From Brachybacterium sillae (GTDB lineage: Bacteria; Actinomycetota; Actinomycetes; Actinomycetales; Dermabacteraceae): a DNA stretch of 64,000 nt. This document shows positions 6,001-12,000 of the stretch, in pieces. Location of the stretch: positions 434,001 through 498,000 of the forward strand of contig NZ_JAFEUW010000001.1 of NCBI RefSeq assembly GCF_025028335.1, read 5' to 3'. The first letter of the stretch is position 1. Every line of letters begins with the position of its first letter. The position numbers were made by a program.

Positions 6001-9000
6001 CGTGCTCGGCGCAGAAGTCCAGCATCTCCTGGGTCTCGCGGATGCCGCCGATGTTCGACCCGGCGAGAGCCTTGCCCCCGCTGATGACGCTGCCGAAGCT
6101 CATCGGCTGCTGCTCCGGAGGCAGGCCGACGACGACCATGGTCCCGTACGGCGCGAGCAGGCCGAGGTACTTGTCGACGGGGATATCGGCGCTGATGGTG
6201 TTGAGGATCAGGTCGAACTCGCCCTTGTGCTCCTCGAAGAAGCCGTCCTCGGAGGTGGCGAGCACCCGGGTGGCGCCGAGCTCCTTGGCCTCCGCCTCCT
6301 TGCGCAGGGTACGGGTGAGCACGGTGACCTCGGCTCCCATGGCCGCGGCGATCTGCACACCCATGTGGCCGAGCCCGCCGAGGCCGAGCACCGCGACCTT
6401 CCGGCCCTCACCGGCGCCCCAGCGGGCCAGGGGCGAGTAGGTGGTGATGCCGGCGCACAGCAGCGGCGCGGCGACGTCGAACTCGAGCGCGTCGGGGATG
6501 GTCAGCACGAAGCGCTCGTCGACGACGACCTTCTGGCTGTACCCGCCCTGGGTGATCGTGCCGTCGACGTCCTCGCTGTTGTAGGTGCCGACGGCGCCGT
6601 TCAGGCAGTTCTGCTCGTTGCCGGCGCGGCACTGCTCGCACTCGCCGCAGGAGTCCACGAGGCAGCCGACGCCGACGCGGTCACCGACCTTGACGCGGGT
6701 GACCTCATCGCCGACGGCCTCCACGACCCCGGCGATCTCGTGGCCGACGGTGAGGGGGAAATGCGCCTCACCCCACTCGTTGCGGATGGTGTGGATGTCA
6801 CTGTGGCAGATGCCGGCGGCCTTGATGTCGATGACGACGTCCGTGGGCCGCGGGTCGCGCCGCTCGATCTCGGCGACACGGAACGGCTGGTCCGGTCCGG
6901 TCTTCTGCAGGGCCTTCACGGTCTGAGGCATGGGGGCGGTCCTCCTGCTCCATGCTGGTGACGCGTCGTGGGATGGTCGTCGACCACCTTACGCCGCAGG
7001 TCCTGGGGGATTTCTCGGTGCTCTGGCGCCGTGTGCCCTCTCACCCGCTGAAGTGGTCGAAGGGGGCACCGGGCACCGGGTCACCGTCCAGGAGAACCTG
7101 GGGCGCGTCGCCATCCTCCGGTTCCTGCACCCGGCCGATCGCACGGAAACCCTCCGGCAGCGCACCGGCGGGGAAACAGGCGAGCAGGGCGTGTTCCTCA
7201 CCGCCGTGAAGCACCCACTCCCGTGCCCTGTGGAGGGCACCGCCGGGGGCTCCCGCAGCGGCTCCGGCGGGAGCCCCGTCGGATGCCGCCTCCACCTCGT
7301 CCAGCAGGCGCCGCGCCACCGGTGACAGGGCCGCCACGTCCGCGGCGAAGGCCGTACCGTCGAGGTCGAGGTCGACCCCGCTGCTGCGAGCGATCCGTAG
7401 GCCATCGCGGACGGGCCCATCGGACAGGTCGAGCATTGCGTGAACCCCGTTCTCAGCGGCGATCAACCCCCGTCGCAGGTCCGGGTCCGGGGCGTTATGC
7501 CAGGCCAGGAGCTCCTCTTCACGGTCATCGCGACACCGGCCGGGGCGCCGCCCGCTGAGCACCAGCGCCAGGCCCGCGGCGGAGCGTCCCAGCCGCCCCG
7601 CGCTGACCGCGAGGATGTCCCCCGGTCGGGCGCCGCTCCGGAGCACGGGCGCGCGCCCATCGGGCAGCACCCCGAGGGCCGTGACGGTCAGTGACAAAGC
7701 CTCGGCTCGTCCCAGATCGCCGCCGACGACGATCGCGCCGCTGCGGGCCGCCCGCGCCGACAGCGCGGTCATGATCTCCTCGATCGCCTCGGCGGGGGCA
7801 CCTCCCGGGGCGCTGAGGCTCACCACCAGGGCGAGGGGCCGGGCTCCCATCGCGATGACATCCGCGAGGTTCTGCACTGCCGCCTTCGCCCCGATCCATG
7901 CTGGTCGCGTCGCATCCGGCAGGAAGTCCTGGCCCTCGGTGAGGGTGTCGGTCGTGACGACCAGGCGCGGCGAGGAAAGCTGCAGCACCGCGGCGTCATC
8001 CCCCGGGCCGACCAGGACGCTCCCGAGAGCGTCCCGGGTGCGGGGATCGGCGGCCGCGACCCCGGCCATGGCCGGGACGATCCGCTCCAGGATCCCGTCT
8101 TCGCTGAGCTGGTCGAGACGCATGCCCCCAGTGTGCCCGAGGCCCACGCGGACCGACGGGCGGGCAGGTGCCCCCACGCCCGATAGGCTCGGACCGTGCT
8201 CCCCCACTCCGGACTCCCCCGCTCGCCGCGCGCCCTGGCCCGCATCGGTGCTGCCCTGCTGCTCGTCGTGACGGCGAGTTCCTGCGGCGTGCGGGTCCCT
8301 CCCGGGCCGGAGGCCGCCGACCCCCGCTGCGCCGATCTGGTGGTCGGTGCCCCGGGGGAGATGGAGGGGCTGCCGCGGTCCGAGACCACGAGTCAGGGCA
8401 CTGTCGCCTGGGGCAGCGGTGCGGACACGATCGTCCTGCGCTGCGGGGTCGTGCCGCCGGGCCCCACCACCGACCAATGCACCAGGTTGGAGGACCAGAA
8501 CGGGGTGAGCGTCGACTGGCTGGTGGAGGAGGGTGACGACGGCATCGTGCACTTCACCACCTACGGGCGCCTGCCGGCGATCGACGTCACGGTGCCCCGC
8601 AGCGTGGCGCCGGATCAGCCCTCCGCCGTGCCGTTGGCCCTCGCGCCGCTGGTGGCGCCCCTTCCGGTGGACCGGCAGTGCGTCGGCCCGGAGGACCTGA
8701 CCTGATCGTGCAGGTCTCGACGCGGCGGTGCCCCTGGGTCAGCGCGGCCCGACGGGCCGGGATCGCGCCAGCTCGATGAGTTCCGCGACGAGGTCCGAGT
8801 ACGTCAGGCCCATGTTCTCCCAGAGCACAGGGAACATGGAGAACGGCGTGAAACCGGGCATGGTGTTGACCTCGTTGACCACGACCTCACCCTGCCGGGT
8901 GACGAACACGTCGACCCGGGCGAGTCCCTCGAGCCGCAGCGCGGTGAAGGCCTCGGCGGCGACCTGCCGCACCCGGTCGCTCTGCTCCGGTGTGAGCTCG

Positions 9001-12000
9001 GCGGGCACCTGGATGGTGACGGTGCCCTTGCCGAAGTACTTCGATTCGTAGTCGTAGAAGTCGAGATCGTCCCCGAGGATCACCTCACCGGGCGCCGTGG
9101 TGCGCGGCGCCTCGCCGTCGCGTCCCTCCAGCACACCGCATTCGATCTCGCGGCCCTCGACCTCGGTCTCGACCAGCACGCGCGGGTCCTCGGCGACGGC
9201 GATCCGCATCGCCTCCTCCAGACCGTCGGGCGTGTGCACACGGGTGACACCCATGCTGGAGCCGGCACGGGTGGGCTTGACGAACCACGGCAGGGGCAGC
9301 GTCTCGAGGCGCGTGCGCACGGCGTCCGGGTCGGTGACCCACTGGGCGGCGGTCACGAGCTCCCCGGGTGCCACGGCGATCCCGGCGGCCTGCAGGGCCT
9401 GCTTGGTGGCGGCCTTGTCCATGCACAGGGCGGAGGCCAGCACCCCGGAGCCGACGTACGGGATGTCCGCGAGGTCCAGCAGGCCCTGGACGGTGCCGTC
9501 CTCCCCGAAAGGGCCGTGGAGCAGCGGGAACACCACGTCGACGTCCGCCAGGTGCTCCACACGACCGTCGCGCACCACGCGCAGTTCGGTACGTCCGCCG
9601 TGGGGCACGGCCTCGAGGGGCAGGAGCACCTCGTCACCGTCCACGGGGACCTCGGGGGCGCGGCCGTCGCGGATCTGCCAGTGCTCCGGGTCGGAGGACA
9701 CCTCGACGCAGCGGCCCTGGCGGGTGACACCCACGGCCACCACGTCGAACCGGGCGGGGTCGAGAGCCGAGAGGACACCGCCGGCCGTGACGCAGGAGAT
9801 GCCGTGCTCGCTGCTGCGACCGCCGAAGAGCAGGGCGACGGTGGTGCGCGGGCTCATGGGGGCCTCCTGGGCGGTCACGAACGGTCGGAGGATGCCGACG
9901 GAGGCAACAACCGGGCGGCGGCGCGGGGCAGACGGAGCCCGCCCCCGGGCCCGGTCGTGAGCTCGCCTCGGGCACGAGCCCGGCGTCGGACGGTCGCCGG
10001 CGCGCGCCGGGCCAGGGTGTGCACCGCCGCGGCATGCATGAGGCGACGGGGTGCGAAGGCGAGACGCCCGCGCAGCGTGCGGTACTGCACGGCGGTGGTG
10101 ACCTGCAGCAGGGTGCCACCGGGCAGCAACGCCACAGCGATGCGTACCCGCAGATCGGGGGTGTCGTCGACGATCAGTGCCTCGCTGCCGCGGACCTCGT
10201 TGGTGACGTAGGTCCTCTCCGGCGGCGGCACCATGTCGAGGAGCCGAACGGCCTCATCGCGCAGCGCCCGCAGACCGCGGGCACCGAGCGTGCTGTTCTC
10301 ATGCGCGAAGATCGCCTCGGCCCACACCCGCGGGTCGGGCTCGTCCACGCCCCGGGTCGGCACGATCACGACATCGCAGTAGTCCGGTGCCGGGATGTCA
10401 CGCAGGGCCAGGGACCCGGCCGCACCGGTCGGGGTGATGGCGTCCGAGGAGTCGAGCGGCCGTTCCTGCATGGGGTCAGTCCTCCCAGTATTCGGCCCCG
10501 AGGGCGGTCAGCTTGGAGCGGAAGCTCTCATAGCCGCGGTCGATGAGGTCGATGCCGTGGATCCGGGAGACCCCCTCCGCGCCCAGGGCCGCGATGAGGT
10601 AGCTGAAGCCGCCGCGCAGGTCCGGCACGGTGATCTCCGCGCCGTGGAGGGGCTTCGGGCCGGAGATCACGGCGGAATGGTTGAAGTTGCGGCGTCCGAA
10701 ACGGCAGCTGGAGCTACCGAGGCATTCGCGGTACACCTGGATCTGCGCACCCATGTCGTTCAGCGCGCTGGTGAATCCGAGGCGGTTCTCATACACCGTC
10801 TCGTGGACGATGGAGATGCCCTCGGCCTGGGTCAGAGCGACCACCAGCGGCTGCTGCCAGTCGGTCATGAAACCGGGGTGGACGTCGGTCTCCACCGCGA
10901 TGGAACGGAGCGGTCCGCCGGGGTGGAAGAACCGGATGCCCTCCGGGGTGATGTCCATCCCGCCGCCGATCTTGCGGAACATGTTGAGGAAGGTGCTCAT
11001 CGGCTTCTGCTGGGCACCGCGGACGAACACGTCACCGCGGGTGACCAGGGCGGCGCAGGCCCAGCTGGCGGCCTCGATACGGTCGGGCAGGGCCACGTGC
11101 TCGTAGCCGCCCAGACGCTCGACACCCTCGATGGTGATGGTGCGGTCGGTCTGCAGGGAGATGATCGCGCCCATCTTCTGCAGCACGGCGATGAGGTCCT
11201 CGATCTCCGGCTCCACCGCGGCGTTGGTGAGCTCGGTGATGCCCTCGGCCCGCACGGCGGTCAACAGCACCTGCTCGGTGGCTCCGACGCTCGGGTATTC
11301 GAGGTGGATCTTCGCACCCCGCAGGCCGTTCGGCGCGGTGATGGAGATGCCCATCTCGCGTTTGTCGACCACGGCCCCGAAGTTGCGCAGCACGTCGAGG
11401 TGGTAGTTGATCGGCCGGTTGCCGATGCGGCAGCCGCCGAGGTCCGGGATGATCGCCTCCCCGAGGCGGTGCAGGAGCGGTCCGCAGAACAGGATCGGGA
11501 TGCGGGAGGACCCGGCATGGGCATCGATGTCGACCACGTGGGCCCGCTCCACGTTGGACGGGTCCATCCGCAGCAGGCCGCCGTCGACGTCGCGCTCCAC
11601 CTTGACGCCGTGCACCTTCAGCAGCTCGCTGACGATCTGCACGTCGCGGATGTCCGGCACGGAGTGCAGGGTGCTGGGTTCTTCGCCCAGCAGGGCGGCG
11701 ACCATCGCCTTCGAGACGAGGTTCTTCGCACCGCGCACGGTGATCTCACCGGACAGCGGCCGGCCGCCGCGGACGTTGAAGGTCGAGTTCATGGTGTCCT
11801 TGGACAGGGTGAGGGGCGGGCACGGGGCCCGGGGACCGACTCACCTTACCGGAGCGGCCTCGGGAAGTCGGTGAGTCGTGGCGCGTGCGACGCTCAGACC
11901 CCCGATGCCGTCCGCGTCGGGAGCGTCCTGGGCATCCACGCGGGACGCCGTGCCTCGAAGGCGTCGATGTCGGCGGCGTGCCGCAGCGTGAGGCCGACGT

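Follow-up and report, generated by a model that had tools for sequence, protein, structure and literature searches.

In the 64-kb stretch of the Brachybacterium sillae genome analysed here (the window), the genes ddl and g00390 follow each other on the same strand, flanked by a DUF3515 gene and a murA-like gene that serve as synteny anchors (Table 1). The g00390 stop codon (9875-9877) is separated from the ATG of ddl (9857) by only 17 nt, in which a ribosome-binding site stands 5 nt before the start codon. The ddl product is 58-71% identical to the protein encoded next after gpsA in other members of the family, and g00390 encodes a protein with a diverged C-terminal tail and a weak match to DUF2867, under the Pfam cut-off.

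Table 1. Features of the gpsA deletion locus (window positions) and of the operon for the proposed route (position on contig C1)
Feature	Position	Strand	Remarks
DUF3515 protein	8196..8705	+	downstream synteny anchor
ddl, D-Ala-D-Ala ligase	8739..9857	-	name taken from the preliminary description and from synteny; intact, with the ATG at 9857 as probable start
deletion junction, 17 nt	9858..9874	-	AGGAGG ribosome-binding site at 9863-9868
g00390, conserved 198-aa protein without assigned function	9875..10471	-	found in 66/67 family genomes
murA-like gene	10476..11792	-	upstream synteny anchor; name presumed from sequence
FAR-SDR-AT-AGPS operon	C1:1886261-1892022		outside the 64-kb window

Ten loci were fetched from relatives, one of which is a second gpsA copy situated elsewhere and was left out; in all nine others, which have both flanks, a PlsC-family acyltransferase gene and gpsA fill a gap of 1.8-2.1 kb. 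The same two genes occupy the locus in seven of eight metagenome contigs, the eighth ending inside gpsA, and the exact B. sillae junction pattern had no match in the metagenomes searched, from which near genomes may be missing. A preliminary description of this DNA had proposed that gpsA and the neighbouring acyltransferase gene were deleted, and with flanks 17 bp apart where relatives hold both genes, the deletion of the pair in B. sillae is real. That one joint event removed them is unproven, since each is often lost separately: the acyltransferase alone is gone in 13 family loci checked and gpsA alone in genomes G082 and G083, and a tree built with FastTree gives weak inner-node support (0.42) as to which of the two B. 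sillae lost first. Both genes are also absent from G117, G237 and G303, and G073 lost both independently, with the last gpsA codons left as a scar. The B. sillae junction carries no clear gpsA scar, DNA remnants of the lost genes were limited, among the matches listed, to short scattered ones, and a scan for promoters and terminators found none. Each of the eight junction 20-mers tested is unique in the genome.

The B. sillae assembly (2.67 Mb in 2 contigs, no N) is 99.99% complete with 0 contamination and small for the genus; we found no basis for the earlier epithet "free-living". The claim that GpsA is missing from the entire genome was borne out: PF07479 returned 0 candidates, the highest PF01210 score, 19.6 bits, fell short of the cut-off (23.1), and tblastn with the GpsA of two relatives gave a best E value of 0.06. 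In agreement with the earlier prevalence counts, GpsA is present in 63/67 family and 280/300 order genomes; G002, in which gpsA is missing through a contig end, was excluded from the GpsA-less counts. Compared with the classical GpsA-PlsB/PlsXY-PlsC route, B. sillae lacks GpsA, PlsY and any PF01553 match of PlsB length. Its four PF01553 matches are the acyltransferase (AT) of the FAR-SDR-AT-AGPS cluster, a 95-codon fragment and two proteins that we take to be PlsM-like from their gene neighbourhood and from a tree.

The AGPS protein of the cluster, with FAD_binding_4 and FAD-oxidase_C domains, matches solved alkyl-DHAP synthases over its full length (2uuu, E 8e-104; 4bby, E 6e-79). Its R327, Y487 and H524-526 align to R419, Y578 and H615-617 of 4bby, presumably catalytic residues; the same motif occurs in a divergent AGPS-like protein encoded beside glpD, and is by itself not diagnostic. 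We regard the B. sillae protein as a putative alkyl-DHAP synthase orthologue. Since AGPS acts on acyl-DHAP (PMC9702350), an operon containing it calls for both an enzyme that acylates DHAP and a reductase. The cluster AT is a short PlsC-type PF01553 protein (240-300 aa) with an HX4D motif (HTSHLD) and a sole PDB match, 5kym; it does not class with the DHAP acyltransferases of the GNPAT/PlsB type. It lies outside the GNPAT family yet likely works like a member of it: gene context is what points to DHAP specificity, the protein being PlsC-like rather than GNPAT/PlsB-like, and a single-sequence structure prediction (pLDDT 39.6) was too low in quality to use. Directly upstream of the AT gene, the SDR carries glycine-rich and YxxxK motifs, and eukaryotic acyl/alkyl-DHAP reductases are SDRs (PMC13256971); B. 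sillae encodes one further member of this SDR family, a paralogue that the SDR tree does not set cleanly apart. The FAR protein, fused to an HAD-IB phosphatase, carries both male-sterility domains, PF07993 above its cut-off and PF03015 slightly below (35.0 versus 35.4 bits).

The cluster is no compensation peculiar to B. sillae: it is a family core, with AGPS in 64/67 family genomes, the majority of which retain gpsA, and about 60 relatives keep gpsA and the cluster together, which counts against a replacement role. The distribution of the gpsA-linked AT is nevertheless tied to that of AGPS. All 16 family genomes (of 67) without the gpsA-linked AT have AGPS, and the three without AGPS all kept that AT; in family f14 it is found in 0/6 AGPS-positive versus 6/6 AGPS-negative genomes. 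Across the order sample (n=300), it is missing from 37/73 genomes with a high-identity AGPS versus 33/227 others, or 11/205 of the others when family f6 is left out; the counts are given both ways because its apparent absence from the 22 f6 genomes is likely a threshold artefact, the sole one examined (G029) having a divergent AT just before gpsA. GpsA itself is missing from 12/73 high-identity-AGPS genomes versus 8/227 others. In family f18, 11 of the 15 AGPS-positive genomes lack GpsA (these measure 3.6-5.9 Mb) and four have a divergent copy only, versus GpsA kept in 7/7 AGPS-negative ones. The Fisher p-values of 5e-4 and 2e-5 are overstated, since related genomes are not separate samples and independent lineages number just a handful. 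Outside the family, all 52 high-identity-AGPS genomes have a cluster-type AT, which adjoins AGPS in most loci examined and is separate from it in f19. Seven divergent AGPS-like proteins (35-39% identity) were scored as AGPS-negative; their genomes are without the cluster AT, and the one locus examined lies by glpD.

Genomes lacking both GpsA and AGPS had been cited as counter-examples to a DHAP route. Most genomes of this kind keep the SDR-AT pair: a cluster-type AT occurs in nine of ten, with the SDR directly upstream in eight, versus 2/21 AGPS-less genomes that bear GpsA. The exception is G124, in which GpsA and the cluster-type AT are both missing (95% complete, 170 contigs); in G157 the AT is present and the SDR not adjacent. 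G328 keeps the SDR-AT pair and has no match for GpsA, AGPS, the gpsA-linked AT or GlpK. The cluster-type ATs form one clade (support 0.97), and the SDR lies directly upstream of the AT in 27/27 named Actinomycetaceae loci. The SDR-AT pair would be the core of the proposed route. Like G124 and G157, several further genomes weigh against it: G125, G182 and G311 have no AT at the locus, no AGPS match and no known substitute, and G204 and G192 have only one and two PF01553 matches, respectively, leaving the sn-2 step unexplained in both.

PgsA requires glycerol-3-phosphate (G3P) for the phosphatidylglycerol (PG) head group, and acyl-DHAP cannot provide it, so outside glycerol would still be needed for lipid head groups. 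The genes glpD-glpF-glpK are intact in B. sillae, as stated before when they were named as an alternative G3P source, and PgsA scores above its cut-off; its G3P most likely comes from GlpF/GlpK. GlpK is present in 21/22 other GpsA-less genomes and in 50/50 family genomes tested. Motif regexes, a weak test, gave no hit for TagF, Ino1 or a TagD-type protein in the B. sillae genome.

We consider it probable that B. sillae, having lost gpsA and the acyltransferase, starts its glycerolipids from DHAP through the SDR-AT/AGPS operon. The cluster AT would convert DHAP to 1-acyl-DHAP; AGPS, judging from its homology and conserved residues, would put a fatty alcohol supplied by the FAR domain in place of the acyl chain; the SDR would reduce acyl-/alkyl-DHAP to 1-acyl/alkyl-G3P; and one of the two PlsM-like enzymes would acylate the sn-2 position, a point of likeness to the mycobacterial PlsM/PlsB2 system. 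The route would stand in for GpsA and the sn-1 acyltransferase in backbone synthesis and yield a largely alkyl-acyl membrane, and an SDR-AT pair without FAR and AGPS would run the same route to ester lipids. Demand for free G3P would be limited to the PG/cardiolipin head group, served by outside glycerol via GlpF/GlpK or by reversed GlpD, and with this lower demand gpsA would likely become dispensable. The earlier proposal of an acyl-/alkyl-DHAP entry to the membrane thus holds as the best candidate for the backbone and leaves head-group G3P uncovered. The model draws on gene losses, gene content, co-occurrence and motifs. Quite possible, if more tentative, is a wider reading in which the SDR and PlsC-type AT cassette is a bacterial acyl-DHAP pathway and the main lipid entry across several actinobacterial lineages, making ether lipids with FAR-AGPS (Dermabacteraceae, f18 and others) and ester lipids without (Arcanobacterium-Trueperella relatives), repeatedly permitting loss of GpsA and the gpsA-linked AT, and marking the latter as the missing sn-1 enzyme of actinobacteria in which PlsB/PlsXY are absent.

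Plain glycerol auxotrophy would account for part of these observations: in a reduced genome, all G3P would enter via GlpF/GlpK, PlsC-family enzymes would acylate both positions and the ether cluster would make a side fraction. The small genome, the intact glycerol genes with PgsA, and the near-constant GlpK of GpsA-less genomes are all as expected, since salvage alone could permit gpsA loss, and mycobacterial PlsM acylates G3P directly (PMC10593935), even if it is reported to be sn-2 specific. We nevertheless think this unlikely, as it gives no reason for the gpsA-linked AT to have disappeared almost exclusively from cluster-bearing genomes, for GpsA-less genomes that have no FAR/AGPS to retain SDR-AT, or for the 11 f18 genomes of 3.6-5.9 Mb to have lost GpsA. 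Somewhat less probable still is a cluster AT with broad sn-1 specificity that acts also or mainly on GlpK-made G3P in place of the lost enzyme, with an acyl-DHAP branch for ether lipids only. Eukaryotic GPATs accept both DHAP and G3P (PMC13256971), the cluster AT is PlsC-like, and the single acyltransferase of G204 hints at wide specificity; however, an SDR would be needless beside a G3P-using enzyme, and it lies upstream in 8/10 AGPS-less, GpsA-less genomes and in every named Actinomycetaceae locus, and G328 lacks a GlpK match.

That both genes are missing through misassembly, or through a deletion that arose in the laboratory in this strain, is very improbable: the junction is without support from reads or a second assembly, but the assembly is complete, the flanking genes are intact with their ribosome-binding site, the junction 20-mers are unique, and both genes are likewise missing from G117, G237, G303 and, with a scar, G073.

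The DHAP route favoured here shares with the eukaryotic acyl-/alkyl-DHAP pathway (GNPAT, AGPS, FAR1, DHRS7B/Ayr1p) the AGPS orthologue, a FAR and a likely SDR reductase, and differs in its short PlsC-type rather than GNPAT-like AT, its FAR-HAD-IB fusion and its organization as a bacterial operon. In starting lipids from DHAP, B. sillae would likely resemble animal peroxisomes, and the AGPS-free bacterial form would parallel acyl-DHAP reduction by Ayr1p in yeast (PMC13256971). In Myxococcus xanthus, MXAN_1676-1674 and elbA-E likewise comprise AGPS, FAR, an acyltransferase and an NAD-dependent oxidoreductase, with an HAD protein in elb; there, the fusion partner of FAR is a GNPAT-like domain, and disrupting AGPS is reported to lower ether lipids just slightly (PMC9131029). 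This small contribution counts against a main-route model; the actinobacterial set, in contrast, tracks the loss of gpsA and its linked acyltransferase, a pattern suggestive of a main route. The B. sillae cluster contains no ElbD-type FAR-ACS-ACP-AT fusion, its FAR being fused to HAD only.

Plasmanyl-PG is reportedly the major phospholipid of Dermabacter hominis, a member of the same family. The ether-linked lipids of this species are the subject of Valero-Guillen et al. 2016. By analogy with this relative, B. sillae may contain a large share of ether-linked lipid. Genus g18 (7 genomes), which the make-up of the family suggests is Dermabacter, carries AGPS but not the gpsA-linked AT, as in B. 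sillae, and differs in keeping gpsA in 6/7 genomes. Ether-linked lipids in D. hominis are also mentioned in PMC11705821, and the cluster offers a candidate genetic basis for them.

Bacterial phosphatidic acid is taught to begin with GpsA-made G3P and PlsB or PlsX/Y, and lipid typing of aerobic actinobacteria usually stops at the head group. Many actinobacteria lack the PlsB and PlsX/Y acyltransferases, and PMC5720513 leaves their first step open, ascribing it in Actinotignum to an enzyme not then identified. Our analysis names two candidates: for the G3P route, the acyltransferase linked to gpsA, and for the DHAP route known from eukaryotes, the SDR-AT pair. In the literature searched, with most subscription journals outside its scope, we found no bacterial acyl-DHAP route replacing GpsA. 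The DHAP model leads us to expect membranes that are largely ether-linked in aerobic actinobacteria and, if true, bears on where environmental bacterial ether lipids come from, with B. sillae as a natural double mutant for the route.

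In Brachybacterium sillae (2.67-Mb genome, two contigs, rated 99.99% complete), gpsA and the acyltransferase gene beside it are absent between the conserved gene g00390 and ddl, both on the minus strand, as the preliminary description had stated. The window spans C1:434001-498000. The two flanking genes are 17 nt apart, and an AGGAGG sequence lies 5 nt before the ddl ATG. No GpsA was found in the genome with PF01210 (best score 19.6 bits against a cut-off of 23.1), PF07479 (no candidates) or tblastn (best E 0.06). In all nine relative loci having both flanks, the gap measures about 1.8-2.1 kb and holds a PlsC-family acyltransferase gene and gpsA, and the same arrangement was seen on seven of eight metagenome contigs. 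The g00390 gene itself is kept behind murA in 66 of 67 other Dermabacteraceae genomes, its family match being a weak one to DUF2867.

GpsA is present in 63 of these 67 family genomes. Real losses were recognized in G073, G082 and G083; a fourth candidate, G002, was rejected since its gap is a contig end. Alkyl-dihydroxyacetone-phosphate (DHAP) synthase (AGPS) is encoded in 64 family genomes at 65-78% identity. The cluster of fatty acyl reductase (FAR), candidate acyl-DHAP reductase (SDR), a different acyltransferase (cluster AT) and AGPS is therefore part of the family core, and its presence in B. sillae by itself explains nothing. Losses of the gpsA-linked acyltransferase, which is present in 51 family genomes, are nonetheless ordered and fall exclusively in AGPS-bearing members: all 16 genomes without it carry AGPS, and all three AGPS-less genomes keep it. 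At 13 acyltransferase-less loci checked, gpsA alone remains. G073 shows an independent loss of both genes, with the last gpsA codons left as a scar before ddl. In a five-protein FastTree phylogeny of 36 family loci, which gives no ordering of the events in B. sillae, acyltransferase loss falls on several scattered branches and gpsA loss on three.

A single draw of 300 genomes of the order, each at least 95% complete, yielded AGPS matches in 80, of which 73 had E below 1e-180 and seven were divergent and scored negative. GpsA was absent from 12 of the 73 positive versus 8 of the 227 other genomes, and the gpsA-linked acyltransferase from 37 versus 33, respectively, counts that include non-independent kin, so that Fisher values computed on them overstate. 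Twenty-two of the 33 belong to one family (f6), without which the count becomes 11/205; the single f6 genome examined carries a divergent acyltransferase beside gpsA. Among the 15 AGPS-positive genomes of family f18, 11 (3.6-5.9 Mb) lack GpsA and four have a divergent copy only, and all seven AGPS-negative members keep it. The linked acyltransferase occurs in none of six AGPS-positive versus all six AGPS-negative genomes of f14 and in none of 21 f19 genomes; its absence was confirmed at six loci. Like several other genomes, B. sillae represents a natural loss of both genes; they are also missing from G117, G237 and G303. Divergent GpsA-family proteins, possibly polyol-phosphate dehydrogenases, are encoded in G101, G228 and G026, where canonical gpsA is apparently gone; in the first two they adjoin sugar kinases and an alcohol dehydrogenase.

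Genomes devoid of both GpsA and AGPS had been feared as counter-examples to a DHAP route, yet most retain the SDR-AT pair and so become support for it. Cluster-type AT was found in nine of ten, the exception being the fragmented assembly of G124, and in eight (G082, G083, G151, G165, G192, G204, G317 and G328) SDR lies directly upstream with neither FAR nor AGPS nearby; G157 has the AT without SDR. The pair also occurs in G026. Among 21 AGPS-less genomes keeping GpsA, five of them searched with the G151 protein, two carry the AT, in both cases without an SDR next to it. In G082 and G083 the pair follows the same upstream genes as the B. sillae cluster, FAR and AGPS being gone. Outside the family, cluster-type AT accompanies high-identity AGPS in 52 of 52 genomes and divergent AGPS in 0 of 7. 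Named records, counted irrespective of GpsA, show the bare pair in 27/27 Actinomycetaceae loci (Arcanobacterium, Trueperella, Actinobaculum, Flaviflexus, Ancrocorticia and others). Those from Agreia, Kocuria and Rhodoglobus contain the cluster in full. Cluster-type ATs form one clade in our tree, separate from gpsA-linked enzymes and from those we label PlsM-like. Because it is encoded with AGPS, the AT would be predicted to produce acyl-DHAP, and the SDR, kept beside it after AGPS loss, is best read as a putative acyl-DHAP reductase. Judging from gene content, the SDR-AT cassette likely replaces the glycerol-3-phosphate (G3P) route into membrane lipids, whether or not the ether step is present.

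The AGPS of B. sillae matches alkyl-DHAP synthases of solved structure, with R327, Y487 and H524-526 conserved. PlsY was not found in this genome, which has four PF01553 matches: one is the cluster AT, two are PlsM-like enzymes and the last is a 95-codon fragment of a third subfamily. The glpD-glpF-glpK genes are intact, PgsA scores over its cut-off and a GDPD motif is present. PgsA requires free G3P, which acyl-DHAP cannot supply; an acyl-/alkyl-DHAP route would thus cover the lipid backbone but not this demand, for which B. sillae likely depends on outside glycerol, glycerophosphodiesters or reversed GlpD.

Glycerol salvage alone could have permitted gpsA loss, given that GlpK is widespread, being found in all 50 family genomes tested and in 21 of the 22 other GpsA-less genomes (G328 being the only one without a match). 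Several observations also count against the DHAP reading: the cluster AT is PlsC-like and not GNPAT-like, the B. sillae SDR has a close paralogue, the AGPS motif recurs in a divergent homologue, and in G125, G182 and G311 both the gpsA-linked acyltransferase and AGPS are missing. A clear separate sn-2 enzyme was not seen in G204 and G192. The SDR-AT cassette would be a variant of a pathway already described in eukaryotes and myxobacteria. Literature searches listed no publication in which an acyl-DHAP route stands in for GpsA in bacteria; actinobacteria are not mentioned in the opening part of PMC13012113 or at the terms searched in it, and passages of PMC11784230, PMC11150832 and PMC13538518 contained nothing relevant. 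Taken together, the analysis confirms the double loss and lends partial support to the earlier interpretation, for the backbone but not for free G3P or a special cluster; we consider it fairly probable that SDR-AT provides the entry route.

Coordinates of the features discussed
Feature	Location	Remark
ddl start codon	window 9857	ATG
g00390	window 9875-10471	stop codon 9875-9877
Presumed respiratory nitrate reductase operon and sulfate/nitrite assimilation genes	window 24751-32827 and 41737-52425	resemblance read from sequence
PF01553 fragment	B. sillae C1:583363-583650 (L035)	truncated acyltransferase
ppc-like gene before cluster	B. sillae C1:1881749-1884624 (L032)	two overlapping frames, apparent frameshift near 1883940; single frame in G082
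FAR-HAD	B. sillae C1:1886261-1888498, outside window	oriented divergently from SDR, AT, AGPS
SDR, AT, AGPS	B. sillae C1:1888641-1892022, outside window	
gpsA scar, G073	L036:6816-6937	
Divergent GpsA-family gene, G101	L061:6351-7350	
Divergent GpsA-family gene, G228	L185	
Divergent GpsA-family gene, G026	L092:6549-7577	
Variant cluster, G032	L118:582-6697	
Variant cluster, G173	L119:626-6892	
Variant-cluster site, G157	L187:4596-7033	Lar_N and AT only
AGPS-like oxidase, G111	L068	

The divergent AGPS-like oxidase of G111 (37% identity, R/Y/HHH kept) adjoins glpD without FAR, SDR or AT and perhaps serves ether-lipid breakdown. A variant cluster in G032 and G173 consists of FAR-HAD, a zinc-dependent dehydrogenase, a lactate-racemase-N-domain (Lar_N) protein and cluster-type AT; no AGPS match was found at these loci or in that of G157, and the dehydrogenase and Lar_N protein may substitute for SDR and AGPS. 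FAR-AT and AGPS are separated at the f19 loci that were inspected, and 11 of the 21 cluster-AT matches in this family contain one TGA, probably in sequence upstream of the true start.
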